From: a virus | DNA length: 64,000 bases | Strand: one strand, 5' to 3' | Virus genome (UHGV): UHGV-0214148 | Part shown: piece after piece, positions 34,031-58,633 of the stretch | Layout of the letters: the number at the start of each line of letters is the position of its first letter | Numbering within the stretch: position 1 is the first letter of the stretch | Notes under the pieces: model-generated | Databases searched by the model: none | What the model saw: the letters and a program-made list of their open reading frames with translations, nothing else | What the model was told of the DNA's origin: nothing | Made by a program: the position numbers and the translations under genes

Positions 34031-35527
34031 TTATTTCTTTTTCGTCAGGAACTTCGGTTCTAGTCCATCGACAGCCATACCCAGAATAGTACGTGCAGTC
34101 AGTGTACGTTTACCACCTTTAGTTTCCTGGTCTTTAAACATCCAGTATTCTACCGTGTTGTCCAGAATTTCATTCCAGTCCCACTTCTCGTCAATCAGTT
34201 TGTAAATCTCACCCATGCTGAGATGATACTTCATTTCAAGACGATGGTAGTTGTTTTGCATATACGCAATTGCCGCAGTGATTTCTAAAGCGCGACGTAA
34301 GCGTGCGTTATCAGAAATCATGTCGCGGATTGTCGTGCGTTGGAATTTCACACCAGGTAGAATGTCCAGTTCTTTGATGGAGCCGCCACTACCGCTTGAT
34401 GTGAAACCAAAGTCTGACTTCTTCAGCGTGTCACTTAAATAGTGCCACAGGCTCAGGTGATATAACAGACCCATTTCCTGAGAGAAGATCATCTGAAATT
34501 TCACACCGGTGTGACCACCCTTCGCACGATACTGGGTAAAGGTGATAATCTTCAAGTCGTTTACCGACGCATTCATCGCTTTAGAACGTGACGTCGGATA
34601 AAGTTCTTCGTTAACACCGGTCTGTGCGTTATAGCTCTGGTCTTTCTTCAGTTCCCCTGATTTCGTCGCGACAATAAAAGAGTTTGTTAAGAAGCTAAGC
34701 TGACGGCGAGGAATACCTGCGAATTTTAGATCGTCGTTGGCGTCGTCGAGAATTTTCGCATTTGCTTTTTGTGCCTGTCGACCACCCGCCATCGCTTTCC
34801 CAGAGTCATCGGCCATCTGTGCCACGAAGCCCATGTAAAAACCGCCGCGTGCAAACGCAGACGGCCAGCGGCTCATCATATTCGATTTTTGCAGCGCATC
34901 GTGGGCGTTCAGGATGTTCTGATCAGAATCCCCGATATCCGTTTTTGCGTGCTTGTCTTCCAGCGAACTGGAATGCCATTCTGACAGGGAGTCGATAGAA
35001 TAAAGCCAGGGGTCCAGGATTTCTTTTAACTTGCGACGAACCGGATCGGGGAACGGTGTTACACGGGTTTTACCAGACATATACTGTTTGAAGCGTTTTT
35101 CAACTTCATCACGAATATAATCACTGTAATACTGTTCCCCAGGCATTACGTCAGAACCGACCAGGTTATAACGACCTTCGTGGATAAGCTCCAGTACAGA
35201 TGTTCCGTCGTCGATACCGTTGGCGTTCATGGCAGAGATGTACCCAGTTTCTAAACGATCGAGGGCAGCGGACACTTCTGTATCGTACTTAGAACCCCAC
35301 TCTGCTTTATAACGTTGCAGGATTTGGAAGATACAGAAATCTAACAAGGTGGATTTAAAAGTGTTACCGCGACCTGCGAAACCCATGATGTGGGCAAAAC
35401 CACCGTTAAGGTAGTACAAACCATCTTCACCTTTTTCGTAGTTACCTAAGGCATGATCCATGATGGTGTAAACGTTAAAACGTGGACGAATTACTTCACC
35501 GATAACTTGCTTAGTTGGGCCTGCCAT
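34031..35527 (-). CDS. P-loop protein, possible RecA/UvsX-like recombinase
   Basis: 498-aa ORF; GGFAHIMGFAGRGNTFKSTLLDF...RYKAEWGSKYDTE resembles the Walker A region of phage UvsX (GG..LAGPSKSFKS...RQY...YDSE, from memory). Single-motif evidence. Confidence 0.4.
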   Translation of the reverse strand: MAGPTKQVIGEVIRPRFNVYTIMDHALGNYEKGEDGLYYLNGGFAHIMGFAGRGNTFKSTLLDFCIFQILQRYKAEWGSKYDTEVSAALDRLETGYISAMNANGIDDGTSVLELIHEGRYNLVGSDVMPGEQYYSDYIRDEVEKRFKQYMSGKTRVTPFPDPVRRKLKEILDPWLYSIDSLSEWHSSSLEDKHAKTDIGDSDQNILNAHDALQKSNMMSRWPSAFARGGFYMGFVAQMADDSGKAMAGGRQAQKANAKILDDANDDLKFAGIPRRQLSFLTNSFIVATKSGELKKDQSYNAQTGVNEELYPTSRSKAMNASVNDLKIITFTQYRAKGGHTGVKFQMIFSQEMGLLYHLSLWHYLSDTLKKSDFGFTSSGSGGSIKELDILPGVKFQRTTIRDMISDNARLRRALEITAAIAYMQNNYHRLEMKYHLSMGEIYKLIDEKWDWNEILDNTVEYWMFKDQETKGGKRTLTARTILGMAVDGLEPKFLTKKK

Positions 35528-40999: not shown

Positions 41000-41656
41000 A
41001 TTTTTAGCGAAAAAAGGATCGACTATAAACTCCTTCACCTGTGAGTCATAACCCGAATGTATTTGATCGCTACTGAGCAAATACCCGTCTAAATCGTGTG
41101 GAAGAATCCAAGAATCCCCCTGTTTAAAAATACCATAATCTGTTGTTCCAGAGGAAAAAACGATTTCCTCTGGAGAGGAATAGATGTGGCGTAAGGCAAG
41201 ATCGGACGGCTTTAACACGATTAATCGAACGGGATGTTGACTGACTGCCTCTTTAATAAACTGTTCACGATTAAAGCAAATTATTTTTTCGGGGTAAGTT
41301 TCGAATTCAGCCCATGTCCGCCTGATAACTAATTTGGAAATCTTTCTCAATTCTTCAGAATGCTCTGCGTAGCCGATACACTCCTTGCGTACTTCATGAT
41401 TTTCTACCGATGCTGCGAATTTTTGGAATAGGTGTTGTTGGAAAAAGCCGTTCTCCGGGATATCACAACCTGCGTTGTATAGTGCAATGATCTCCCACAA
41501 CAACGAAAGAGAAAACACAAATGCTAACTTTTCCACCACTTCCCAATCTTCGGAGTAAGGGGCTTTAAAGCCCCAATACTGCCGTGCGTTATACATAAAG
41601 TGAGTTTGTAAAAACCGAGGGGCTTTTGACAAGACCTCACTATAAACGATCAGCAT
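40988..41656 (-). CDS. hypothetical protein
   Basis: 222-aa ORF. Confidence 0.55.
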   Translation of the reverse strand: MLIVYSEVLSKAPRFLQTHFMYNARQYWGFKAPYSEDWEVVEKLAFVFSLSLLWEIIALYNAGCDIPENGFFQQHLFQKFAASVENHEVRKECIGYAEHSEELRKISKLVIRRTWAEFETYPEKIICFNREQFIKEAVSQHPVRLIVLKPSDLALRHIYSSPEEIVFSSGTTDYGIFKQGDSWILPHDLDGYLLSSDQIHSGYDSQVKEFIVDPFFAKNILR

Positions 41657-43170
41657 TCAAGCTCCTTATCCGTCAATATTCGTTTGTTTGAATAATAGCC
41701 GCACCACAACCCATGATATTTTTCCCCGATATAAACCAACGCATATTCGATATACTGCCGTTCTGGACGCCGTACCGCCACGTAGAATCGTCCTTCTGGT
41801 TCTTTCATACGGTTGATTTCCGTACGCGTCGGTATGTCGATACCTCGAGTAAGGATAGTTTTAACCTTGTTTTTGCTACCAGGGATATGGATGGTTACGT
41901 CAAAACCTTTATCTACGTTACGATAAAAGTCTTTCTTCGGCTTACCTTTCTCATCGTAAAGCAGGTCAGTAATGTCGTTCATTACGACTGAGTTTTTCCC
42001 CTCCATGGCATCGCGTAACCAACCTGCAAGCTCATCACGAATCGTAATGCAGCGATAAGACAATAACGCGGGACGAAGAATTCGTGTAATCGAAAGATCT
42101 TCAAACATCCACAGGTTTTTGTCTTCGCTAAAATGCATCCGATCGATAGGAATACCGTTAGCTGCGGCTTCTGCGAACTTTTTACGCTTTACGAATAAGT
42201 TAAATACAACGGCGATGGGATCAAATTGACGTAAACGGGGCACCCCTTCCCACGCTTTCGCAGAGTGGGTATTTACTAACTCGTATACGTTATCCCACGG
42301 TTCTTTGGTAAACATTACGCAGAATTGTGCGTCTGGAATGTACTTACCAACGAAGACGATATCGTCCTTCTGTTTTGCATGGTTCCCACCGAACATGTAA
42401 TAAAGTTTATTACCGTTAACCGTAACCGTGGGATGGGGTTCGTTCACCATCGGGTAACAGAACTTCGTAACACAGATATCGGGAAAGGCAGACAAATTGA
42501 CACCTTCACCAACAACTTCTGGTTGCTGATCTTCCTCAGGCATCTCGTCTTTTGACCAATACGGTGTATAGTCTAGCCCATCGCCTCGTGCCGAGATACT
42601 TGAACCCTTCCGTGCTAACTCGTCGGCACGTTCGTTTCCATAGCGTCCTGAGTGCCCTTTAATTTTAAGGACACGAACACCTTTCCCTTCTTTCTTTAAC
42701 CGCTGTTTAACCTCCCACATCCGTTGGATTAATTCCAAGTTCGCAATAGGCGTACCGTCAGCACGACGCCAACCGCGTGCAGCCCAACCATCAATCCAAT
42801 CGTTATACGTGTTGACAACGTAAGATGCGTCGATATAGATAACATAGTTTTTGGCAACGAAAGGTGCGTGTTCGAAAACGGTCAGGAGAGCCACGAGTTC
42901 TGCAACGTCGGAGTGTGACATTTTTGGTACAGGCACAACACCGTCAATAAACTCCACGGTTTCAGGTAAAGGTGGAAGTTTTTCATCCTTGTTTATCTGG
43001 CGGTATCCTGACGTCGTAATCCCCTCGGGAATAGAGGGATGGCGATAAACCCGACCATCCTCAATCGCTTCACGATTAAATAAGTATCCATGAATCCCCG
43101 CTCCTGTACCGAGCGGGGAGGTCAAATGGCTACCATCCGTGTAAATTACTGCAACATCAACGTTCTTCAT
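41650..43170 (-). CDS. RNase H (RNase HI-type) domain protein with about 300-aa C-terminal extension
   Basis: 506-aa ORF; VAVIYTDGS ... YVIYIDASYVVN ... KGHSGRYGNERADELARKG match RNase HI catalytic motifs. Confidence 0.8.
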   Translation of the reverse strand: MKNVDVAVIYTDGSHLTSPLGTGAGIHGYLFNREAIEDGRVYRHPSIPEGITTSGYRQINKDEKLPPLPETVEFIDGVVPVPKMSHSDVAELVALLTVFEHAPFVAKNYVIYIDASYVVNTYNDWIDGWAARGWRRADGTPIANLELIQRMWEVKQRLKKEGKGVRVLKIKGHSGRYGNERADELARKGSSISARGDGLDYTPYWSKDEMPEEDQQPEVVGEGVNLSAFPDICVTKFCYPMVNEPHPTVTVNGNKLYYMFGGNHAKQKDDIVFVGKYIPDAQFCVMFTKEPWDNVYELVNTHSAKAWEGVPRLRQFDPIAVVFNLFVKRKKFAEAAANGIPIDRMHFSEDKNLWMFEDLSITRILRPALLSYRCITIRDELAGWLRDAMEGKNSVVMNDITDLLYDEKGKPKKDFYRNVDKGFDVTIHIPGSKNKVKTILTRGIDIPTRTEINRMKEPEGRFYVAVRRPERQYIEYALVYIGEKYHGLWCGYYSNKRILTDKELEC

Positions 43171-49172: not shown

Positions 49173-49682
49173 TTAGAAGAACGGCTGATTTGGAATGACA
49201 GCGTACTCTAAAATGAACATATGTTCCGGGGCGTCTTCTTTACGCCAGACTTTGTGTGTCGACACAAGTTTTTCCAGAATCGTTAAGAAACTACGTTGGC
49301 AGTATGTGTTTTCACCAAGCAGTAGATTTTGAAGTTCTACAGTAGCGTCCATATACGCCTGTTTAAAGACTAAACTACGGTTATACTGCCCGGTAAAATT
49401 CCAAAGCAAGACCTTCCCTTCTTCGGTTTCTTTTACCGTTGGCCGTAAACCACAAATCCACAGTAAGGCAAGGTTGACGTTCCAGTCAAACTCTAAACCT
49501 TCTTCTTCGTCAACACCGAATGCTGTGGGTAAAGCATCGTAAAATTCGTGTTTCTCTGCGAATTCTTCATCCGACTTAATCTCGTCTTCGATACTGCTTC
49601 GGACGATACTGTAAACGTCTTTCGCGGTCAATTGTGCGGCTTTTGTAATGCCTTTATACCAATCGGTTACTACGATGCTCAA
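49173..49682 (-). CDS. hypothetical protein
   Basis: 169-aa ORF; 4-bp overlap with upstream gene. Confidence 0.55.
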   Translation of the reverse strand: MSIVVTDWYKGITKAAQLTAKDVYSIVRSSIEDEIKSDEEFAEKHEFYDALPTAFGVDEEEGLEFDWNVNLALLWICGLRPTVKETEEGKVLLWNFTGQYNRSLVFKQAYMDATVELQNLLLGENTYCQRSFLTILEKLVSTHKVWRKEDAPEHMFILEYAVIPNQPFF

Positions 49683-50404
49683 AGGGTAACTCCTCTATTG
49701 ATTGGAAAACTCGTGTTTATCGTATCCCAAATTCTACTAACTTCCGCCAGTTGAATCTGACGTGGTGTTTTCTTCGCAAACGCAAGCTGACGTGGGGCCG
49801 AGCCCACAACAACAGGCACATCGATTTTCGCGCTATAGAACGCGGCGTCTTTCATAAAGCCTGCCATTTCTCGTTGTGCTGCTCGAGATTTGCTTTTGAT
49901 TCGCGTGTGAGCGCCACTTTCACCCCAGTGGTAAGCTAACGCAACTTCAGCCATGGTGGGCTTGCGTTTGAGTCGTTTGGTTAACCCCTTCTCAAGATGT
50001 TTAACATACGCAGTAGCCAGCAAAACAGCGTTACGCGGATTATACAAATCGGCATTCTGACTAAGACCTAATTCTTTTCCATAAAGCTTTAGCAGATTAC
50101 GCTTGGTACTTGGAAGCATCTGTACCAGGCTGTGTGCTCGTGAGCTTTTGTTGTAAGCCTTGGGATCAAAACGCGATTCACGATAAATCAGTGTAATCAT
50201 CAGCTTGGGATCAACGCCCTGCTTTCGTGAGATTTCCACAATTAACGGGCTGACTTTTTCGAACCGATGTTGGATTTGTGCAAACTCTCGCTGATGCTTA
50301 GAATGTGGCGTTGACGTTGACGCCTGTGCGTTAAACGCGAAAAGTGTTACCAGTAAAAGAAAGAAGATACGAAACATTTTGTTTCTCCAGTTGGATTTAT
50401 ACAT
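49679..50404 (-). CDS. secreted lytic transglycosylase (SLT domain)
   Basis: 241-aa ORF; signal peptide MFRIFFLLLVTLFAFNAQAS; LIYRESRFDPKAYN...SLVQMLPST matches family-1 lytic transglycosylase motifs. Start may be the internal Met (MFRIF). Confidence 0.7.
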   Translation of the reverse strand: MYKSNWRNKMFRIFFLLLVTLFAFNAQASTSTPHSKHQREFAQIQHRFEKVSPLIVEISRKQGVDPKLMITLIYRESRFDPKAYNKSSRAHSLVQMLPSTKRNLLKLYGKELGLSQNADLYNPRNAVLLATAYVKHLEKGLTKRLKRKPTMAEVALAYHWGESGAHTRIKSKSRAAQREMAGFMKDAAFYSAKIDVPVVVGSAPRQLAFAKKTPRQIQLAEVSRIWDTINTSFPINRGVTL

Positions 50405-50462
50405 TTCCGTATTCCGTAAGACGAAATGACGGCGCGGACAGCTAATACTCCTTTGTTGTGTG

Positions 50463-50488
50463 CCCTAATGATAATATCTATTTAAAAG
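50463..50488. promoter_or_regulatory. AT-rich promoter-like motif CCCTAATGATAATATCTATTTAAAAG
   Basis: Same core; upstream of the secreted transglycosylase gene, overlapping the stop of the macro-domain gene. Confidence 0.35.
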
Positions 50489-51038
50489 AGTTTGGAATTA
50501 ATGACTCTGCTTCTTGGTACAGCTTATCAGGTAAGTATAACGTGTAGCGCTGCCTCCTCGGTTCAAGTTTTTTGTAAAGCCACAAAAAGATTTCTTGTCT
50601 TTCCCAGGAATCTAACCACCCATTTGCCATTCCCAACGGAGGGATAGCAACGCTGGTATCCAGATCCTCAACACAGTCTGCTAATGCGGTAATGCCCGCA
50701 GTAACATAAGAAACCTGGGATTTTAAACGCCAATGTGTTTTCGTGGGGAGCAAGATACACTTTTCGTCAGAGTAAACGTAAACGCTTCCAATCTTAATTT
50801 CGTCTTCACGACACCGCTTACGATAATCCTGATAAAGGTTGGGGTAGCGTTCACGACACGCGAGTGCAATACCGCGACCCATTGCTCCTACGCAGTTAAT
50901 GGTAACGACTTTATAGTCTTCGGGCGCATTAAAAAGATCGTTACCAATTTCAGATTCTTTACGTACCGTTAACATAACGAAACGCCCGGAGTTGATGTGT
51001 AGTATTAAAACGTGTACCGCCGATTGATAGCTCGACAA
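50478..51038 (-). CDS. macro-domain (ADP-ribose hydrolase-like) protein
   Basis: 186-aa ORF; VVTINCVGAMGRGIALACRERYP ... LLPTKTHW ... VAIPPLGMANGWLDSW follows the pattern remembered for TARG1/DarG-type macro domains. Confidence 0.55.
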   Translation of the reverse strand: MSSYQSAVHVLILHINSGRFVMLTVRKESEIGNDLFNAPEDYKVVTINCVGAMGRGIALACRERYPNLYQDYRKRCREDEIKIGSVYVYSDEKCILLPTKTHWRLKSQVSYVTAGITALADCVEDLDTSVAIPPLGMANGWLDSWERQEIFLWLYKKLEPRRQRYTLYLPDKLYQEAESLIPNSFK

Positions 51039-51062
51039 GTATAGCGATATATGTTTTACCCA

Positions 51063-51431
51063 TTATCGATTTTTCGTAATCCATTGCTTGACCGCCGCTT
51101 CTAAACCTTCGTGTTGTAAGCCCAGGCGCTGCATAGTCAGTGACAAGTTAAGCGTGTGGACGACCTGCTCACGGAACTGATGATCGTTCATACGGTCCCA
51201 GACATTCTCTACTGAAATATTGTGTTTCCAGAGCAAATAAGCTTCACGACACGATGCGCGACGAACTAAACTGGGTTTAACAAAAGGCAACTCGATTTCA
51301 GGCAAGTAACCTAAAAGCTTAACTAACGGCGTTACCTGCGTCTTACCGAAGTCACCACATTGATAACAAATTTGCAGAATATCAATTTCATTCAACGGTA
51401 TGCCGTAAATTGATGGGTTCTCTGTGAACAT
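51063..51431 (-). CDS. hypothetical protein
   Basis: 122-aa ORF; GAGGAGAA SD. Confidence 0.5.
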   Translation of the reverse strand: MFTENPSIYGIPLNEIDILQICYQCGDFGKTQVTPLVKLLGYLPEIELPFVKPSLVRRASCREAYLLWKHNISVENVWDRMNDHQFREQVVHTLNLSLTMQRLGLQHEGLEAAVKQWITKNR

Positions 51432-51633
51432 TCATATTCTCCTCAGGCTCGAAATGTGATTCGGGTGGCAACGTCCCTAAAGCCCCTTGGATACAAGCCG
51501 TCAGTGAAGGTTTGCCGAAACAGACCTTACCTATCGTCCCCACATTGGGATGCTGTAAGAACGCTTTCGCACGTTCGTATTCTTTCCAACAAATACTCGT
51601 ATCCAAACCACCCACTCCGTACGATTTTAACAT
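51388..51633 (-). CDS. hypothetical protein
   Basis: 81-aa ORF with AGGAGAG SD; 3' end overlaps downstream gene by 44 bp. Confidence 0.4.
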   Translation of the reverse strand: MLKSYGVGGLDTSICWKEYERAKAFLQHPNVGTIGKVCFGKPSLTACIQGALGTLPPESHFEPEENMNVHREPINLRHTVE

Positions 51634-51699
51634 AATTAGCTCTCCTGACGTAAATTTCTCACACTCATAGTGAGGTACGCCAAGAGAGCTTTATTGTTT

Positions 51700-52143
51700 T
51701 TAGAATGTTTTGCTAAAATCGACCCACTCACGATCGTGTGAGTAAACCGCTTGATAGCCGCGTCGGATGAAATACTCTTTTGCTTCTTTACATTTCGCAT
51801 ACATGCCAGTAACAATCTCGCCGAAAACTTCATCAGCTGCAATTGCTTTGAAAATCTCTTTCATTACACCCCGTTGACGATAGTCTGGGAGCACGTATAC
51901 CGAACGTATCTTAAGTGAACCGTTACGATTCCGATAACTACAGTATCCTACCGCGACATCATCCTGATACACCAGAACTATGCAGTTACCTTCGATCAGC
52001 TGTCGCGCATTTAACTTCGGCACCGACGTTTTGATTTTCAGTAACGTGGCCTGGTGGTCTAAGTAACGGTAGTGTAGTTTGAGTAAATCGGCAGCTTGAC
52101 GCTCACCGACTTTAGAAGATGCGTTCAACAAATAAATTTCCAT
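51700..52143 (-). CDS. GNAT-family N-acetyltransferase
   Basis: YVLPDYRQRGVMKEIFKAI matches the acetyl-CoA-binding motif. Start set to ATG at 52143 (track ORF begins at a TTG two codons upstream). Confidence 0.6.
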   Translation of the reverse strand: MEIYLLNASSKVGERQAADLLKLHYRYLDHQATLLKIKTSVPKLNARQLIEGNCIVLVYQDDVAVGYCSYRNRNGSLKIRSVYVLPDYRQRGVMKEIFKAIAADEVFGEIVTGMYAKCKEAKEYFIRRGYQAVYSHDREWVDFSKTF

Positions 52144-52174
52144 TTGCAAACCTTAGAGACGCAAAAAAGTAAAA

Positions 52175-52303
52175 TTAAAACCAACGCACGATGACGAATG
52201 CCGCAGCGGCTAATATGGCCGTGGTGATTATCAATCCACCCCATGAAAGTTCCGCGTCGTATAGTGCGGATATCGCTACATTCGTAGTGTTTATCGAGGT
52301 CAT
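52175..52303 (-). CDS. small hydrophobic protein (42 aa)
   Basis: Hand-translated: MTSINTTNVAISALYDAELSWGGLIITTAILAAAAFVIVRWF; AGGAGCAGAAA SD; below ORF-track size cutoff. Confidence 0.35.
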   Translation of the reverse strand: MTSINTTNVAISALYDAELSWGGLIITTAILAAAAFVIVRWF

Positions 52304-52317
52304 TTTCTGCTCCTAGT

Positions 52318-52341
52318 AATACCCTCACGTCGGAGGGTATT
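52318..52341. terminator. stem-loop (AATACCCTC / GAGGGTATT) between small membrane protein genes
   Basis: 9-bp stem followed on plus by TTTT; a second hairpin (GGGCGTTT/AAACGCCC) lies about 15 bp further on. Confidence 0.35.
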
Positions 52342-52360
52342 TTCCGGATTATTTGGGCGT

Positions 52361-52459
52361 TTAATCTTCAAACGCCCATCTGTGTTGTTTAACCAGCAAG
52401 TTTAAACCTTTACCGATTAACCACATCGCACCAAGTGTTAACAGAACCCCTTCAACCAT
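52361..52459 (-). CDS. small hydrophobic protein (32 aa)
   Basis: Hand-translated: MVEGVLLTLGAMWLIGKGLNLLVKQHRWAFED; AGGAGAAGGGAAT SD. Confidence 0.35.
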   Translation of the reverse strand: MVEGVLLTLGAMWLIGKGLNLLVKQHRWAFED

Positions 52460-52470
52460 ATTCCCTTCTC

Positions 52471-52656
52471 CTAATTCCGCCATTCGCATTCGCGTTGACG
52501 CCAAATTGAACCCCACGATAGTTTAATCAGATAAGATGAAACTACCCATAAAATCATCACCACACAAAACATGACATAAAGAACCGCTAGAATGGACATG
52601 AAGCCAAACCCTGCCGCATCCACAATACGACGGAACCAATCAGTTTGCATAAACAA
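52471..52656 (-). CDS. small membrane protein (61 aa)
   Basis: Track ORF; long hydrophobic core FGFMSILAVLYVMFCVVMILWVVSSYLI; GAAGGAG SD. Confidence 0.45.
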   Translation of the reverse strand: MFMQTDWFRRIVDAAGFGFMSILAVLYVMFCVVMILWVVSSYLIKLSWGSIWRQRECEWRN

Positions 52657-55144
52657 TTTTTACTCCTTCGTTATACACCGCAGGCAATGTCACCCCTTCC
52701 GGTTCGATGACACAGTACGATGCTTCATTAAGTTTAGAATGAACCTCGGCTTCGTGGGAGACTACCAACAGTTGGGAAAATTCTCCCGAGTTTGCTAACG
52801 TTTTAATAAAGCCGACCAGGTTGTTACGGTGCTCCTCATCCATGCCTTCCGAAGGCTCATCCAAAAGCAACGGAAACTGATGCAACTTCAGCGCTTTGTA
52901 CGCAGTCAGCCTGAACATCAGATTAAATATCGCACGCTGCGCCTTAGATCCTTTACGCACGTCAGGAACAGGCTCAGGATGCGTTTTTAGCTGGACAGGA
53001 AAAGTATAATCCAAATCGCCGTCAGTGAGGTCACAAGGCATAACGCGCATGGGGTACGTCCAGACTTGTTCGATATAACGCGTCATTAACTCTGTGATTC
53101 TAACGATAGCGTTGTAAAAATACTTTCTAAGTACACCCTTTTCTGGCGAGAAGGCTTGAATCATCAGTTTGTTATTGAACTGCTGGGCTTGTAAGTCAGC
53201 AAGTTCGCGTTCCAAACTGTTGAGCTGATTCAATTCATTTTCCATCTGACGATAACGTTCGCGTGCGGTTGTAAAAGCATCCAGCTTCCCTTCTCGAGCA
53301 CGTAAGAGTTCCTCGACGACTGTATTTGTCAACGTAACCTTAACATCACTCTCTAGCCGTTCGAATAACGCACTGAAATCATCTACAGCACGTTTAACAT
53401 TCACCAGATAGGTAAGTGTCGTGTTAGCCAGTTCGTGCTCTCTACGACGCATTGAGAGCATTTCTGTGGCTTTACCTAATCGCGACTGTTGGAAGGCGAT
53501 TTTCTGTTGTAAAGCGCCATCGACGTTACCAACGGCCGCTACGGCATCCTGCCATTCTTTTTCCGCCTTCACTAACCGTTGTCGGGTTTCATGATACTCA
53601 ATAGCAGAGTACAACTCGCTGTCAAACGCTGCGCATAGACTCCCGAACTGTTCACGTGATTCAGTGAAGACGTTACGTTCTTGCAAACGCTTAAAGAACA
53701 TGCTCAATACCGGGTCCTTTGAATACGTCAGTACAATCTCACGAACCTGCCGCATATAAGTTACATCAGATTCTAATTCAACACGATAGCGTAATAGGGC
53801 CTCTAACTGTGTTTGCAGTTCCGTGCGCTGCTGTTGTTGTCCGCGAATCGAAGACTCAAGTTCAGGTAAAGAACGCGTAACACCGGGCCGAAACTTAAAC
53901 CGACACTGCGGGCAATCCACTTCCGCTGTTTCTAAGTAGTGATTACGCTCGTGATTTAAATTCTGTAAAACGTTCTCCACTCGCTGGAGTCTATCCCGCA
54001 ACCCTGCGGTTTTTTGATCCATCACCAGAAGCCGTTCTTCCAAAACATTGAGTTTTTCGGTTGAATGAATTGCGTCCAGCGTTGTTCCTAACCGTTGCCC
54101 CCAGACACGCGCGTCGGTAGCCGCACGAAGTTGGTCTAAATTGACGTTGTCGTTAAATAGACCCGGAAAGAGATGCTCGGTGTCCCATTTGGTAAGTAAC
54201 TCACGTAAACGCGCCAATGTATTCTTGAGACCTTCGTGATTCCGCATCAGGTAGTCTTGTCGTGTTGACTCATCCATCAATAACGACAAGTCTTTATTCA
54301 ACATCGATACCTCTGTTTCAGTAGACACGACAGCTTCGCGGGCCGTCGCTTCGTTTTGTCGCGCGACCAGTATCTGTTCATCGGTAGGCAGGCCACCACG
54401 ATGTTGTAATATTGCGTCGATGGTTGGGCCCAAGCTGTTTAATAACGCTTGGATTGTTTCGATGGTGACGGCACGATTTAATCCTGGCAACTGTTCGATT
54501 TCTCGGTTCAATTCACGTAAATCCGATTCCAAACCTTTTAATCTCGTCGCTAACTGCTGCCGTTCTTCCTCGTTCTCAATAACACGCGTCCGTAATTCGG
54601 CGATCTTGCGGCTGGTGATTTCAATACCCCCATTTAAGGCAGTAAGGTTTTTACGTAAACGTTGATAAAACCCTAACGCGTAAGTGAGGTCAGAGGTACT
54701 TAAACGGTAAAACCATTTGCGGCGTAATTCGGTTCCCGCATCGGTTAACAACACCTCACCATTTAATAGTTCTTTAATCTCTTTCGTAATACCCGTGATT
54801 TCTTCAACACGGGAGTTGTAGACTTTCGCATTACCTTGCTCGACGATCTTTGTCCCCGTGGTCAGGTTCTCAATATCGCAAACCAAAGAGTTGCCTTTAC
54901 GGGCAACTTTGAATCGATAGCGTTGATCGCCAACTAAACAGTAGTTCGTGTAAGAACCGCCGTCCCTGAATTCAGTTTTAGCTGGTGCTAAGGGTAAGAA
55001 CACAGACAGTAGACTGGTTTTCCCGCAGCCGTTCCCACCCAGGATAATTGTTGTCGGAGACTGGATAGTGAAATCGAAGGTTTCAATTTCATGTAACCCC
55101 ATCCCCGTAAAACCTTTGAGTATAATGCGTTCAACTTTTAGCAT
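52640..55144 (-). CDS. Rad50/SbcC-like SMC-family ATPase
   Basis: Walker A GGNGCGKTS at N-terminus; long coiled-coil centre with CPQC zinc-hook-like motif; C-terminal LLLDEPSEGMDEEH (Walker B) and VVSHEAE. Start set to ATG at 55144 (GGAGGTG SD). Confidence 0.75.
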   Translation of the reverse strand: MLKVERIILKGFTGMGLHEIETFDFTIQSPTTIILGGNGCGKTSLLSVFLPLAPAKTEFRDGGSYTNYCLVGDQRYRFKVARKGNSLVCDIENLTTGTKIVEQGNAKVYNSRVEEITGITKEIKELLNGEVLLTDAGTELRRKWFYRLSTSDLTYALGFYQRLRKNLTALNGGIEITSRKIAELRTRVIENEEERQQLATRLKGLESDLRELNREIEQLPGLNRAVTIETIQALLNSLGPTIDAILQHRGGLPTDEQILVARQNEATAREAVVSTETEVSMLNKDLSLLMDESTRQDYLMRNHEGLKNTLARLRELLTKWDTEHLFPGLFNDNVNLDQLRAATDARVWGQRLGTTLDAIHSTEKLNVLEERLLVMDQKTAGLRDRLQRVENVLQNLNHERNHYLETAEVDCPQCRFKFRPGVTRSLPELESSIRGQQQQRTELQTQLEALLRYRVELESDVTYMRQVREIVLTYSKDPVLSMFFKRLQERNVFTESREQFGSLCAAFDSELYSAIEYHETRQRLVKAEKEWQDAVAAVGNVDGALQQKIAFQQSRLGKATEMLSMRRREHELANTTLTYLVNVKRAVDDFSALFERLESDVKVTLTNTVVEELLRAREGKLDAFTTARERYRQMENELNQLNSLERELADLQAQQFNNKLMIQAFSPEKGVLRKYFYNAIVRITELMTRYIEQVWTYPMRVMPCDLTDGDLDYTFPVQLKTHPEPVPDVRKGSKAQRAIFNLMFRLTAYKALKLHQFPLLLDEPSEGMDEEHRNNLVGFIKTLANSGEFSQLLVVSHEAEVHSKLNEASYCVIEPEGVTLPAVYNEGVKIVYAN

Positions 55145-55194
55145 ACCCACCTCCATAAAGACGGAGTGTGGTGTAAAAAGAAAAAAATAAAGAA

Positions 55195-55218
55195 AGGGAG
55201 AACCCGAAGGTTCTCCCT
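55195..55218 (-). terminator. stem-loop terminator (AGGGAGAACC / GGTTCTCCCT)
   Basis: 10-bp stem, CGAA loop, long A-run on plus side; between gene 55223..55831 and the ATPase gene. Confidence 0.6.
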
Positions 55219-55222
55219 AACG

Positions 55223-55831
55223 TTATTTGGTATACAGCTGATAACCCATTGAAGCCCAATAATCAATGTTCTTCGCGTTTTCTACCCAAACCTGTCCCGC
55301 CTTTGTGGCTAAGACTTCCATTGTCAATGTACAGATCAGATTTGTTACCTGGATACAATTTCCAGGTGTAACATCATCCAGATAAACCGGATATAAAAAC
55401 GGCGATTTAATGGATTGGTACGGGTAAGAATAGTGGCTACCGACTTTCCACCCTTCTTCTACAGGGCAGAGATTATAAGTGCGTGTTTCAGGAACTGCGT
55501 TTTCAGAGATCCAGTTAACAACATCGGCTTTGATTCGATCGTGGTCGATATAGTAGAACACAACACGTTGTGGGATACTTGTGGTACCAGCCGGGTCTAA
55601 AGCCTCCAACGCCTTAAAAGGCGACGTTAACAATGTTGTACTGTTCTCAAGTGCGTAAACCAACTTTTCGTAAGCGGTTGGCGTTTTGCGTTTAAAATAT
55701 TCCCGTAAGCGAGGGTACGCCAGGAAGCCCTCTACTTCTTCTTCCATTAAGTCAATGAATAAAGGCGTATGCGAAAATCGCTCTGCATTTTGCATCGCTT
55801 CAAGAAAACGAACTAATGTAATTTCGTTCAT
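55223..55831 (-). CDS. hypothetical protein
   Basis: 202-aa ORF upstream of the ATPase; no Mre11/SbcD phosphoesterase motifs seen. Confidence 0.55.
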   Translation of the reverse strand: MNEITLVRFLEAMQNAERFSHTPLFIDLMEEEVEGFLAYPRLREYFKRKTPTAYEKLVYALENSTTLLTSPFKALEALDPAGTTSIPQRVVFYYIDHDRIKADVVNWISENAVPETRTYNLCPVEEGWKVGSHYSYPYQSIKSPFLYPVYLDDVTPGNCIQVTNLICTLTMEVLATKAGQVWVENAKNIDYWASMGYQLYTK

Positions 55832-55861
55832 CTGGTCTTTCCTTTTAGATCAAAAAAAGAA

Positions 55862-55879
55862 GCCCCGAGTAAACGGGGC
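55862..55879 (-). terminator. stem-loop terminator (GCCCCG / CGGGGC)
   Basis: GC stem preceded on plus by AAAAAAAGAA. Confidence 0.5.
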
Positions 55880-55887
55880 CGGGCTAA

Positions 55888-56364
55888 TTACAGCCCTAAG
55901 TGCGTGAGTGATAAAATAGGTTGTGTTTCACCTTTAATCGTCGCGAAGGAACGATACATTTCTGCGTTACTTGAAAAAACTTCGTTAGCAACGATACATT
56001 CACCCGTCTCTAAAGAAAGGAGATAAATGTAGTCGCTCCATACGCTTTGTACCAACACCCACTCAAGTGCGGTATCATTTTCGCGTGTTGTTCGCAGGTG
56101 GTGAAAGTAAGGACGGATCGCATCAACTGCCGCATTAAAACGACGGTGATAAATTCGGGTTAAATCAAAGGTCCAGATTGTTTCCAGGTCGACTGGATGT
56201 AATGTGCGCACCGTTTCGATAATCGTCGACTGATCGTTAAGGCGCGAGGCTTCGGCGATACGTAGCAGTTTCCAGGCTACCGTTAAGTTGTGGCGAATTT
56301 GTTCAGGTTTAGCCGACAGGTCATGATGAAATTGCGCAGCTTGGTAAACGTTAGATAATTGCAT
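55888..56364 (-). CDS. hypothetical protein
   Basis: 158-aa ORF with conserved SD context; flanked by terminators. Confidence 0.55.
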   Translation of the reverse strand: MQLSNVYQAAQFHHDLSAKPEQIRHNLTVAWKLLRIAEASRLNDQSTIIETVRTLHPVDLETIWTFDLTRIYHRRFNAAVDAIRPYFHHLRTTRENDTALEWVLVQSVWSDYIYLLSLETGECIVANEVFSSNAEMYRSFATIKGETQPILSLTHLGL

Positions 56365-56401
56365 TTTAATACTCCTTTAGGTAAATATGTCGTAAAAAGG
56401 A

Positions 56402-56418
56402 CCCCGGACGTACCGGGG
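56402..56418 (-). terminator. stem-loop terminator (CCCCGG / CCGGGG)
   Basis: GC stem preceded on plus by an A-rich tract; downstream of the secreted-protein gene block. Confidence 0.5.
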
Positions 56419-56430
56419 CCAAGACTACAC

Positions 56431-56820
56431 TCAAAGATCTAATTCGATAGCACCAGCCATCTTGCCCCGTTCTTCTATAACGATCAGATAACGGTCGCGA
56501 GATTTGCTTTTAGCGAGAGTTAAGACAACGGTAGGGTCGCACGTTTTCGTGGTGATAGGAAGAACCTCTCTTGCGACGGAATCGAGCAGAAAGTAATAAC
56601 CTGCGGGACACATTGTGCCGCCATCAGCTTTTACCAGAATATAGCGCCCGTCTGCGCCGACTTCTTGGCAGATTGTTTCACCGACTTCGCAAACTTCAAA
56701 CCCCGGAGGATTGTACTGGTAATCGGTATTGTTGTTTGGGGTTAGCAGTAAATCGTTAACTTGAGTAGATGCTGCTACACTCAGGGAGAAGAAGAATGCT
56801 AAAACGCAGACGAGACGCAT
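56431..56820 (-). CDS. small secreted Cys-containing protein (paralog of 56831..57241)
   Basis: 129-aa ORF; signal peptide MRLVCVLAFFFSLSVAAS; mature part has CQ...G.RY...GG..C pattern shared with neighbour. Confidence 0.55.
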   Translation of the reverse strand: MRLVCVLAFFFSLSVAASTQVNDLLLTPNNNTDYQYNPPGFEVCEVGETICQEVGADGRYILVKADGGTMCPAGYYFLLDSVAREVLPITTKTCDPTVVLTLAKSKSRDRYLIVIEERGKMAGAIELDL

Positions 56821-56830
56821 GAGTTACTCC

Positions 56831-57241
56831 TTAAATTTTAAGTTTATCCATAGCTACAACGATAGGTTTTTCCGAAGTGTCTAATATCCCTACCATTGGC
56901 ACACCATCTACGACTTCGAAGAATGGTTTGTTATTACCAGAGCATAGACGTTTGTCGTTGTATTCGAGACGCTGAGCCTTCCACGTTTCGAGGTTGAGTA
57001 CGGACATTGGGCTGTCGTAGCACCAGGCACCACCTTGCTCAACGATGAATACGTATCTGCTACCTTTGTATTTAAACAGGCTCTTTGCCTGGCAGTACAA
57101 CCCGTCTATTTCCGTACAATAGAAATCATCGGTGCTATTGACGTACTTAATATTGTCTGGCAACTGTATTGTCTTTGCTGTAGCGTTGACAGAGAACAGA
57201 ACAGCCATTGCAATGAGAAGAGTATTAATGATAGTTTTCAT
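56831..57241 (-). CDS. small secreted Cys-containing protein
   Basis: 136-aa ORF; signal peptide MKTIINTLLIAMAVLFSVNATA; shares Cys pattern with 56431..56820. Confidence 0.55.
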   Translation of the reverse strand: MKTIINTLLIAMAVLFSVNATAKTIQLPDNIKYVNSTDDFYCTEIDGLYCQAKSLFKYKGSRYVFIVEQGGAWCYDSPMSVLNLETWKAQRLEYNDKRLCSGNNKPFFEVVDGVPMVGILDTSEKPIVVAMDKLKI

Positions 57242-57252
57242 GATAAAAGTCC

Positions 57253-57738
57253 TTAGTATTTAGATTGTTCTACGTACTTCTTAACCAGGTAAGCGAATTC
57301 GGCAACACCGATATCACCGAACCAAATCAGGTAACCGGGGTCGATGTTGTAGTAATAACCGACGAGTTTCTTGGTGTGTGGGTTGTATAGCGTTACGATG
57401 TATTCCCAACCACAAGCGTTAGCTTTACAACCGCCACTTTCAATCCAGATTTTGTTGTTGATGTTTACCGGATACATGTTACCGCCAGGGCCATCCATGT
57501 AACCTTTAGAGCCGAACATACCATCCAGTCCCACAGGGTCTAGTGTTTTATCAACAACGGCTTTAAACGACTTATCGGTATCGTACAAGTCGTTGATGTT
57601 TGGGCACGCATTTGGCTGGCCTTCCCAAGCGTTTCCATCACAGGTAAGCAATTCGTCTACGGAGGCCGCATCTACAGTTGGCGTGGCACCGATAAACAAG
57701 AAAACCAGAAAGAACATCAGTGTATGTAAACGTTTCAT
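57253..57738 (-). CDS. small secreted Cys-containing protein
   Basis: 161-aa ORF; signal peptide MKRLHTLMFFLVFLFIGATPTVDA. Confidence 0.55.
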   Translation of the reverse strand: MKRLHTLMFFLVFLFIGATPTVDAASVDELLTCDGNAWEGQPNACPNINDLYDTDKSFKAVVDKTLDPVGLDGMFGSKGYMDGPGGNMYPVNINNKIWIESGGCKANACGWEYIVTLYNPHTKKLVGYYYNIDPGYLIWFGDIGVAEFAYLVKKYVEQSKY

Positions 57739-57756
57739 TGTAACTACTCCTTTAGA

Positions 57757-58149
57757 TTATTCGGCAGGACGATTTAAGGTAACGCGTCCGATTAATTCAG
57801 CGTTGTGAAAGAAGTCCACAGCGGTATAGTTACCAACTGATAGCGGATGGATACTAACTGACATTACTTTTGGTTGTTCGCAGGCGATATCCGTCAGGCG
57901 TTGGTAGACTTGTGCACGAGTGTCAGCAATGAGTAATCCCGTACACGTTTCACCACGCACTAAACGATAAACTTGCAGTTTACCGAAACTGCGCATTAAC
58001 GTAGGCGTCTCATCCGGGTTGATAATCGGTGACTCAGGAGCCGGTTCGTAATAGCGGACATCCGAATCACCGAAAGCATAAGTGCCAGTAATTCCGACCG
58101 CACAGAAAACAATGATAGTATAAAGTATAGTTCTGATATTCATTTTCAC
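57757..58149 (-). CDS. small secreted protein
   Basis: 130-aa ORF; signal peptide MKMNIRTILYTIIVFCAVGITGTYA. Confidence 0.55.
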   Translation of the reverse strand: MKMNIRTILYTIIVFCAVGITGTYAFGDSDVRYYEPAPESPIINPDETPTLMRSFGKLQVYRLVRGETCTGLLIADTRAQVYQRLTDIACEQPKVMSVSIHPLSVGNYTAVDFFHNAELIGRVTLNRPAE

Positions 58150-58171
58150 GCACTCTAAAAAAGATTAATAC

Positions 58172-58633
58172 TTATTTGTTAGGACGGGTGTGTCCACAGT
58201 TCTGGAAGAAAGTTTCAGATAAACGATCGCCTTCTACGGTAAAGTTAGCGGCATCGTTACCATTGATACTCACACTGAAAGTTTTGGCATTACCGATAGC
58301 AATAACGAAAGCAACCCAAGCGTGTTCTGCCTTGTCGCTACCGTCCACGGTAGGGATGTTATAGGTTTTGCCGTTTACGACAATATCCATCGTGTTATCT
58401 TCAGCGTTAGTTGCACCTACGGGTTCCCCGTAATACCAAACCATGCGACCGTAAAATTTGCGATTCACAGTTTCTGTGTCACAGTTGATAGACAGTCCGT
58501 TTCCGGCGGTGTCTTCGATTTCGTAAACTGCCTGGCCAGGGTTTTGTATTTGTTCCCAACTATTGATTGCAGCGTATGCGCTATTGAGGCCGAAAGTTAA
58601 AATGGTTATTAAGAATGTGATAAAGGTTTTCAT
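58172..58633 (-). CDS. small secreted protein
   Basis: 153-aa ORF; signal peptide MKTFITFLITILTFGLNSAYA. Confidence 0.55.
   Translation of the reverse strand: MKTFITFLITILTFGLNSAYAAINSWEQIQNPGQAVYEIEDTAGNGLSINCDTETVNRKFYGRMVWYYGEPVGATNAEDNTMDIVVNGKTYNIPTVDGSDKAEHAWVAFVIAIGNAKTFSVSINGNDAANFTVEGDRLSETFFQNCGHTRPNK

Follow-up and report, generated by a model that had tools for sequence, protein, structure and literature searches.

Gene organization and genomic placement of the locus

The locus is centred on a gene encoding a Rad50/SbcC-type ATPase, with a 202-aa gene upstream and three small hydrophobic ORFs downstream, all on the minus strand of the window (the whole 64-kb stretch of DNA that was analysed). 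The coordinates of these genes, of the sequence motifs of the ATPase, and of a recombinase gene located elsewhere in the window are collected in Table 1. The ORFs of 838 and 202 aa reported in a preliminary description, prepared from the sequence alone, both exist as described. The former length is counted from the first ATG; however, translation probably starts at the second ATG (55144), giving a protein of 834 aa, because GGAGG sits 5 nt before this codon and close homologs of the ATPase measure 834 aa. This probable start is a minor new point of the present analysis.

Table 1. Positions, in the window, of the genes and sequence features discussed in the text.
Feature	Position	Strand	Remarks
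Rad50/SbcC-type ATPase gene	52640..55156	-	838 aa counted from the first ATG; identified by motifs, homology and fold
Walker A / P-loop, GGNGCGKTS	55013..55039	-	Residues 40-48
Zinc-hook motif, CPQC	53903..53914	-	Residues 415-418, at 0.50 of the protein length
Relaxed ABC signature motif, GSKAQRA	52931..52951	-	Residues 736-742
Walker B and D-loop, LLLDEPSEGMD	52838..52870	-	Residues 763-773
H-loop / His switch, VVSHE	52751..52765	-	Residues 798-802
202-aa gene	55223..55831	-	PHROG 9964 (function-unknown family), clade-restricted; not a nuclease
Terminator-like hairpin	55195..55218	-	10-bp stem followed by a T-run, from a pattern scan only; between the 202-aa and ATPase genes
61-aa ORF, predicted single-pass TM protein	52471..52656	-	Kyte-Doolittle mean 2.82 over residues 22-40; PHROG 16515, E=9e-5
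Small hydrophobic ORF	52361..52459	-	51 aa from GTG at 52516 by ORF finder; Kyte-Doolittle mean 1.74
42-aa ORF, predicted single-pass TM protein	52175..52303	-	Kyte-Doolittle mean 2.25 over residues 21-39; AGGAG before the ATG
UvsX-like recombinase gene	34031..35527	-	PHROG 97 'UvsX-like recombinase', E=1.1e-55

The window derives from a phiKZ-like jumbo phage of the nucleus-forming Chimalliviridae. Positions 50000-58000 gave no match to phages by megablast, and the placement came from a protein-level search, in which the nearest named relatives by the ATPase were Erwinia phage Asesino (gp207, 71% aa identity) and Salmonella phage SPN3US (gp186, 58%, full length). The closest genomes are two contigs of ~221-225 kb, which share 94-95% DNA identity with the window (~95% ANI) and encode an ATPase that is 99% identical in amino acids. 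Searches for the ATPase protein itself and for a 60-mer probe in IMG/VR gave no exact match. Synteny around the ATPase gene is conserved with both Asesino and SPN3US, and the SPN3US-like order common to the window comprises the 202-aa gene, SbcC, small ORFs, an acetyltransferase, a macro domain protein, and a transglycosylase. The ATPase is an ortholog of SPN3US gp186, phiKZ gp165, Asesino gp207, and T4 gp46; the SPN3US and phiKZ proteins belong to the same PHROG and differ from it by sequence divergence only.

Architecture of the ATPase and its likeness to Rad50/SbcC

The N-terminal Walker A, central CPQC, and C-terminal Walker B that had been read in this protein could all be mapped to residues and coordinates, and they form part of a bipartite ABC head in which Walker A is N-terminal, while the signature motif, Walker B, D-loop, and H-loop are C-terminal. 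In an alignment of 10 divergent chimallivirus homologs, residues N42, G43, G45, and K46 of Walker A, C415, P416, and C418 of the hook, D766 and E767 of Walker B, and S800 and H801 of the H-loop are invariant, and D773 of the D-loop is nearly so. The same Walker A and Walker B residues, together with D773, are invariant in a 25-sequence set including archaeal Rad50. The signature motif had been described as degenerate, and it does depart from SGG[EQ]; however, the term overstated the difference, as S737 is invariant across the family and GSKAQRA pairs in alignment with the CSAGQKV signature of C. thermophilum Rad50. Other genera carry CSGGE (the canonical form), GSSSQ, or TSEGQ at this position, and the relaxed S-x-x-[QE] signature across the family is a further minor point that is new here.

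The AF2 model of the ATPase (pLDDT 84) runs from head through helical arm, hook turn, and second helical arm back to head. Near-continuous helices extend over residues 158-409 and 430-669, with scarce prolines (4 and 2 per arm, respectively), and the CPQC motif falls in the only non-helical break between them, residues 410-429. The model thereby predicts a long coiled-coil insertion between the two halves of the ATPase head, with a CxxC zinc hook, predicted to bind Zn, at the apex of the coiled coil and no SMC hinge domain.

Significant similarity to bona fide Rad50/SbcC proteins was observed by several routes. The ATPase matches PHROG 77 'SbcC-like' (E=1.4e-91); phmmer against the PDB retrieves the Rad50 heads 5da9 (E=1.3e-5) and 3qkt (E=1e-3); and the family profile reaches Thermococcus Rad50 (E=4.7e-15), an archaeal protein that bears Pfam Rad50_zn_hook. 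Foldseek with the AF2 model returned C. thermophilum Rad50 (7zr1) as the best match (E=9.5e-19), with human Rad50 and E. coli SbcC among the other matches. With Pfam, SMC_N scored 34.5 bits, under its gathering threshold of 40. The initial reading of the protein as a Rad50/SbcC-like ATPase with a zinc hook is therefore backed by motifs, PHROG assignment, and sequence and fold matches alike.

Weak Pfam matches to AAA_15 and AAA_21, along with Lamassu and JetABC chains in the fold-search list, could point to an SMC-family ATPase that the phage carries for defence or anti-defence (resembling Lamassu LmuB, Wadjet JetC, or AAA_15/AbiEii) and not for replication or repair. However, the gene is conserved in the family, with 290 records, and this reading was rejected as extremely improbable, since the two Pfam matches are sub-threshold and confined to the P-loop, the ortholog is essential for phage growth (PMC5105663), Rad50 tops both the sequence and the fold searches, and no LmuA- or JetD-type effector was detected with Pfam or PHROGs among the ~30 window ORFs scanned.

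Genes flanking the ATPase gene

The 202-aa protein, whose SPN3US homolog is gp185, has no match in a Pfam scan and matches no solved structure, and ~16 full-length homologs of it were found among 5.8 billion proteins. The invariant columns of its family alignments include no Asp and no His, and a family-specific SbcD HMM scored 1.1 bits on the ORF. All of this agrees with the earlier remark that this neighbour lacks phosphoesterase motifs; an SbcD hidden in the 202-aa gene, which had been named beforehand as the finding that would overturn the preliminary description, was looked for by profile and none was found. By motif and profile, the protein is not a Mre11/SbcD calcineurin-like phosphoesterase, and this non-nuclease status, together with the lack of a solved-structure match, is likewise a minor new point.

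Downstream of the ATPase gene, each of the three small ORFs (61, 51, and 42 aa) contains one hydrophobic segment of ~19 residues, with Kyte-Doolittle means of 1.7-2.8. [quoted passage not shown] The 61-aa ORF and the ATPase stop codon overlap by 17 nt, and AAGGAG precedes the ORF inside the 3' end of the ATPase gene. An overlap of the same length is annotated in Asesino, whose ORF also encodes a TM protein; by position, the 61-aa ORF corresponds to Asesino gp208 and SPN3US gp187. For the second ORF, which matches PHROG 13448 (E=1.5e-8, covering residues 19-50), a start at the internal ATG at 52459, giving 32 aa, is more likely than the GTG proposed by the ORF finder, because this ATG is preceded by GGAGAAGGG and the PHROG match is confined to residues 19-50. 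The 42-aa ORF had no family match in the PHROG search.

The constancy of these neighbours raises the question of whether the 202-aa protein, the 61-aa TM protein, or both could be clade-specific accessory subunits or regulators of a Mre11-Rad50 complex (analogues of Nbs1, Sae2, or T4 gp47.1) or localisation factors. Wherever the two positions can be compared among the listed genomes, ~100 nt separate the end of the 202-aa gene from the downstream SbcC gene; the 61-aa ORF overlaps the ATPase gene, as in Asesino, and has an internal SD sequence; and the idea of a membrane anchor has been raised before (PMC5105663). However, only 35 of the 290 phage records that bear SbcC have a member of the 202-aa family, and all six SbcC loci read from other genera have a divergent upstream gene in its place, annotated in two of them as a baseplate assembly protein. 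The phiKZ-type genera lack the 202-aa gene, and the phiKZ-like phage 9-Ps-8B has the gene annotated as baseplate assembly protein there. The predicted terminator-like hairpin suggests, moreover, that the 202-aa and ATPase genes need not be co-transcribed, and at 40-70% identity a gene order shared within a clade would be expected from descent alone. Nucleus-forming phages carry out their DNA transactions inside a protein shell (PMC10299810), where the action of a TM partner is hard to see. An accessory role is therefore considered unlikely, and the 202-aa gene and the small downstream TM ORFs are clade-level neighbours of the ATPase gene, not the nuclease.

The distal SbcD-like partner and the proposed role of the ATPase

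No Mre11/SbcD gene adjoins the ATPase gene or was found elsewhere in the window, as had been noted at the outset. A tblastn search of the 64 kb with SPN3US SbcD gave a best E of 0.18, no window ORF of at least 150 aa has two or more Mre11 motif patterns, and the family-specific SbcD HMM reached a maximum of 7 bits on 423 six-frame ORF segments of the window; as a control, a leave-out HMM detected the SbcD of a close relative at E=7e-62. The proposed search for a Mre11 homolog beyond the window was answered in the genomes of two close relatives: in both contigs with 94-95% identity, the ATPase gene is ~89 kb away from an SbcD-like gene in which all Mre11 motifs are present. The source genome itself probably encodes SbcD as well, judging from these relatives at ~95% ANI and from family-wide co-occurrence, and, given a collinear gene order, the gene would be expected ~34 kb outside the window, past its left end. 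SbcC-like and SbcD-like genes are found in 290 phage records each, with almost the same host distribution. The surroundings of SbcC were read in nine chimallivirus genomes, and SbcD was not among the flanking genes in any of them. In SPN3US, the record coordinates place the SbcD-like gene 148 kb from SbcC; as in the lineage of the window, SbcD is far from SbcC and small hydrophobic ORFs lie directly downstream of the latter.

Because Pfam gave no match for SPN3US SbcD (the Metallophos model misses the phage protein), the SbcD label of this family, typified by SPN3US gp27 and phiKZ gp065, was re-tested by motif conservation, PHROG assignment, and a profile search of the PDB. Mre11 motifs I-V (D-x-H, G-D, G-T-x-x-H-D, H-G, and H-x-H) are invariant across 10 divergent SbcD-like sequences, and the SPN3US protein matches PHROG 100 (E=8.5e-64). 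A single SbcD-like sequence retrieved nothing relevant from the PDB by phmmer; with the alignment profile, the best 11 matches were all SbcD or Mre11, individually weak at E 0.003-0.1, with E. coli SbcD giving the best of them. The conserved motifs and the similarity to solved SbcD/Mre11 structures argue that the distal protein is a Mre11/SbcD-type nuclease.

These data bear on the suggestion, implied by the preliminary description, of a partnerless and atypical Rad50. An orphan Rad50-like ATPase without Mre11/SbcD could act, for example, as an SMC-like DNA tether or compaction factor for a very large genome; in line with this, the 64-kb window holds no nuclease gene, the fold search lists SMC5/6, condensin, and MukB after Rad50, and the signature motif of the ATPase is non-canonical. 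However, both closest genomes have an SbcD-like gene in which the Mre11 catalytic motifs are invariant, the phage records with such genes are as numerous as those with the ATPase, the protein bears a CxxC hook instead of an SMC hinge domain, and its best sequence and fold matches are Rad50. The orphan reading is unsupported, the partner being probably encoded distally, and it was rejected as very improbable on the distal SbcD of the close relatives, the CxxC hook, and Rad50 as the best match. PhiKZ-like genomes routinely scatter genes that work together (SbcC/SbcD, RNA polymerase subunits, head genes) across distances of tens to hundreds of kb, a trait of the whole family; a partner missing from the neighbourhood is therefore not evidence of an orphan system in such genomes, a caution for scans made window by window. 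The split arrangement had itself already been published by Thomas et al. 2016 (PMC5105663), who call the SbcC and SbcD genes of phiKZ-like phages 'drastically separated', and neither this separation nor the likewise published identity of the ATPase is new biology.

We are thus confident that the ATPase serves the jumbo phage as the Rad50/SbcC subunit of a Mre11-Rad50 (SbcCD) complex of its own, with the nuclease encoded distally. Physical complex formation, enzymatic activity, and a role in replication are expected by homology to Rad50, SbcC, and gp46. Two ATPase heads would dimerise around ATP, and their antiparallel coiled-coil arms, of ~250 residues each, would meet at a Cys4-Zn hook; the heads would clamp DNA ends and license the dimeric Mre11/SbcD nuclease for end resection and hairpin opening. 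The resulting 3' single strands could then feed the phage UvsX-like recombinase encoded in the window, for strand exchange after end resection, and would be used in recombination-dependent replication and in repairing the genome of ~225-245 kb. The ATPase gene would accordingly be one that nucleus-forming jumbo phages need for recombination and repair, and an essential one. Previous studies are consistent with this: amber mutants of SPN3US gp186 are lethal (Thomas et al. 2016, PMC5105663), phiKZ orf165 is intolerant of transposon insertions (Tn-seq; bioRxiv 10.1101/2025.11.23.690004), and an antisense (ASO) knockdown phenotype is reported for phiKZ gene 165, listed only as '+', and for 'nuclease 065' (PMC12571901). 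SbcC and SbcD are not mentioned in the main text of the chimallivirus core-genome paper (PMC10299810), and their core status rests on the co-occurrence counts and on the wording 'conserved non-virion genes' (bioRxiv 10.1101/2025.11.23.690004).

The proposed system resembles T4 gp46/gp47 in its bipartite ABC head, coiled coil, CxxC hook, Mre11-type nuclease partner, and requirement for growth, and also in the small ORFs associated with the locus (PMC5105663) and in the UvsX recombinase presumably fed downstream, a UvsX-like recombinase being encoded in the window as well. However, T4 genes 46 and 47 are clustered, with two small ORFs between them, whereas the two genes are ~89 kb apart in the lineage of the window; the split ATPase domains are ~300 residues farther apart than those of gp46, and no similarity to the T4 proteins was detected by BLASTP (PMC5105663). 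E. coli SbcCD and the archaeal and eukaryotic Mre11-Rad50 complexes share the ATPase motifs, hook, and architecture, and motifs I-V are common to the phage partner. The phage genes are dispersed, whereas those of cells are organised as an operon, sbcDC or mre11-rad50, and unlike the cellular proteins, both phage proteins fall under Pfam thresholds. The sequences also differ at two motifs, with S-K-A-Q in the phage signature versus S-G-G-[EQ] in the cellular one, and G-T-P-S-H-D in motif III of the phage partner versus G-N-H-[DE] in its cellular counterparts.

Identity of the ATPase

The ATPase encoded in this region is a genuine Rad50/SbcC. It matches PHROG 77 ('SbcC-like', E=1.4e-91), and a phmmer search of the PDB returned the Rad50 proteins of C. 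thermophilum (E=1.3e-5) and P. furiosus. The 838-aa and 202-aa ORFs of the preliminary description, together with the ATPase motifs quoted there, were all located at the positions in the table. When ten homologs sharing 18-71% identity with the window protein were aligned across divergent genera, the columns without variation were N-G-x-G-K in Walker A, C-P-x-C at the hook, the Ser of the signature, D-E in Walker B, and S-H in the H-loop. The signature had been considered degenerate; GSKAQRA does depart from the canon, but it pairs with the CSAGQKV signature of eukaryotic Rad50 in the phmmer PDB alignment and keeps the invariant Ser. The canonical CSGGE is retained in some chimallivirus genera of the ten-homolog alignment.

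A profile built from the family sequences reaches an archaeal Rad50 carrying Pfam Rad50_zn_hook (E=4.7e-15). The MSA-based AF2 model (pLDDT 84) runs from an N-lobe through helices 158-409, a turn, and helices 430-669 to a C-lobe, with both hook cysteines in a single 20-residue non-helical turn. In the PDB the model comes closest to the Rad50 subunit of C. thermophilum MRN (E=9.5e-19), after which come other SMC-class ATPases and then human Rad50 and E. coli SbcC. The hook in place of a hinge domain sets the protein apart from true SMCs. Since the second ATG, at 55144, is preceded by GGAGG at a 5-nt spacing and the nearest homologs have 834 aa, the true product is probably 834 aa from this codon, and the mechanical start at ATG 55156 (window 55144-55156, (-)) is probably not used.

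By homology to Rad50-Mre11, SbcCD, and T4 gp46/47, ATP would drive dimerisation of the heads, and the dimer, its coiled coils joined by the Zn hook, would clamp DNA ends and control access to the SbcD nuclease. Ends resected in this way would pass to the UvsX-like recombinase of the phage, which would use them in repair and recombination-dependent replication.

Features of the ATPase region and related genes in the window
Feature	Position	Strand	Remarks
ATPase ORF	52640..55156	(-)	838 aa from first ATG
Walker A GGNGCGKTS	residues 40-48 of ATPase
CPQC zinc-hook motif	residues 415-418 of ATPase		0.50 of length, exact middle
Signature GSKAQRA	residues 736-742 of ATPase
LLLDEPSEGMD	residues 763-773 of ATPase
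VVSHE	residues 798-802 of ATPase
202-aa gene	55223..55831	(-)	PHROG 9964, function unknown
Macro-domain (Appr-1-p processing-like) protein	50478-51038	(-)	just downstream of SbcC
GNAT acetyltransferase	51700-52149	(-)	just downstream of SbcC
SLT lytic transglycosylase	49679-50404	(-)	just downstream of SbcC
UvsX-like recombinase	34031-35527	(-)	PHROG 97, E=1e-55; 17-20 kb from SbcC
RNase H-like ribonuclease	41650-43170	(-)	PHROG 3265; ~10 kb from SbcC

The nuclease partner, probably distal

The lack of an Mre11/SbcD gene in the window, as first described, was borne out: tblastn with the SbcD of Salmonella phage SPN3US gave a best E of 0.18, no ORF combined the Mre11 motifs, and none of the 423 six-frame segments exceeded 7 bits with a family SbcD HMM. 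A control HMM built from distant genera alone did detect a close relative's SbcD, at E=7e-62. In SPN3US, the SbcD-like gene lies at 21.0-22.2 kb, 148 kb from SbcC in record coordinates; its product has no Pfam match and matches PHROG 100 (E=8.5e-64). The five Mre11 motifs (D-x-H, G-D, G-T-x-x-H-D, H-G, and H-x-H) do not vary in the family alignment, which spans SPN3US-like, Erskinevirus, phiKZ, RAY, and Vibrio-phage sequences, and each of the top 11 PDB matches to the family profile is an SbcD or an Mre11. Motif III of chimallivirus SbcD reads G-T-P-S-H-D vs G-N-H-[DE] (family alignment A3; sequence record L021:3896-5140), and motif V in the lineage nearest the window reads H-H-D-H vs G-H-x-H.

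The search for a homolog outside the window succeeded in two IMG/VR contigs (221 and 225 kb; DNA 94-95% and ATPase 99% aa identical to the window), both of which carry the SbcD-like gene ~89 kb from the ATPase by the shorter path, allowing for circular permutation. Collinearity would place the SbcD of the window's phage ~34 kb beyond window coordinate 1. SbcD was absent from the genes flanking SbcC in all nine chimallivirus neighbourhoods inspected. SbcD-like and ATPase genes are each represented in 290 phage records, and their host distributions nearly coincide; a Rad50 that is unpaired or atypical, as initially implied, is thus unsupported.

SPN3US gp186 was identified as the SbcC subunit, a homolog of phiKZ ORF165, and is essential (two amber mutants); gp27 was named the SbcD subunit, the SbcC and SbcD genes of phiKZ-like phages were called 'drastically separated', and the small TM gene directly downstream of SbcC was remarked on and likened to T4 gp47.1 (Thomas et al. 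2016, PMC5105663). Later work found zero transposon insertions in phiKZ orf165 (bioRxiv 10.1101/2025.11.23.690004), and antisense-knockdown phenotypes are on record for phiKZ genes 165 and 065 (PMC12571901). Given these studies, every element of the initial puzzle has already been described, and the ATPase finding is already known: the gene is essential and family-conserved, with its partner probably encoded distally.

Genes flanking the ATPase

The 202-aa gene occurs in just 35 phage records, which belong to the SPN3US-like, Erskinevirus, and Wellingtonvirus clades, and a set of 5.8 billion proteins contains ~16 homologs of full length. Wherever both positions are comparable in a listed genome, the gene ends ~100 nt before SbcC, on its upstream side. 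Its product was considered as the missing nuclease and rejected, having no Pfam domain and no Asp or His among the invariant columns of its family; with the narrow spread, this makes it a clade-specific protein without a recognisable fold, not the nuclease. AF2 models the protein with confidence (pLDDT 86, pTM 0.83) as a helical bundle at the N-terminus, a small beta-sheet, and further helices at the C-terminus. On present evidence a functional tie to SbcC is unlikely. A hairpin with a 10-bp stem and a trailing T-run separates the two genes, and a divergently transcribed gene replaces the 202-aa gene at all six SbcC loci inspected in other genera, annotated as a baseplate assembly protein in two. 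GC-rich hairpins with T-runs occupy each intergenic gap upstream of the ATPase (55195-55218, 55861-55880, and 56400-56420, (-)); the layout here resembles successive transcription units of one gene each more than an operon.

Downstream, the three tiny ORFs reported as membrane proteins each indeed contain one strongly hydrophobic 19-residue segment. The 61-aa TM ORF and the ATPase gene share 17 nt at the ATPase stop codon (52640-52656, (-)), with the Shine-Dalgarno AAGGAG of the TM ORF inside the ATPase 3' end, and an identical overlap with a similar TM protein is annotated in Erwinia phage Asesino gp207/gp208. This arrangement is compatible with conserved translational coupling; the overlap is kept only where overall synteny is also kept. 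Because DNA transactions of these phages take place within a protein-shelled nucleus (PMC10299810), a membrane partner for SbcCD is not an obvious fit.

Phage lineage and other genes

The ATPase matches come entirely from phiKZ-like jumbo phages, the best being Asesino gp207 (71%) and SPN3US gp186 (58%); DNA near-identical to positions 50000-58000 was not found among phage records. Around the ATPase, the succession 202-aa gene, ATPase, tiny ORFs, acetyltransferase, macro-domain protein, and transglycosylase agrees with that of Asesino and of SPLA5c, an SPN3US-like phage; the order of the last three is shared with Asesino and SPN3US-like phages. The window encodes further chimallivirus hallmarks: virion RNA polymerase beta subunits in split form, a UvsX-like recombinase, an RNase H-like protein, and a giant tail-fibre/transglycosylase protein. 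Salmonella is the likely host, as assemblies of Salmonella enterica contain ~222-kb contigs that encode close homologs of the 202-aa protein.

The genes for recombination and replication are scattered, not clustered, in the window. Five small tandem ORFs at 56431-58633 (-) (129, 136, 161, 130, and 153 aa), syntenic with Asesino gp201-205, all bear a signal-peptide-like N-terminal hydrophobic segment and share very weak mutual similarity (best pair E=0.006); they may form a cassette for phage proteins that are secreted or periplasmic.
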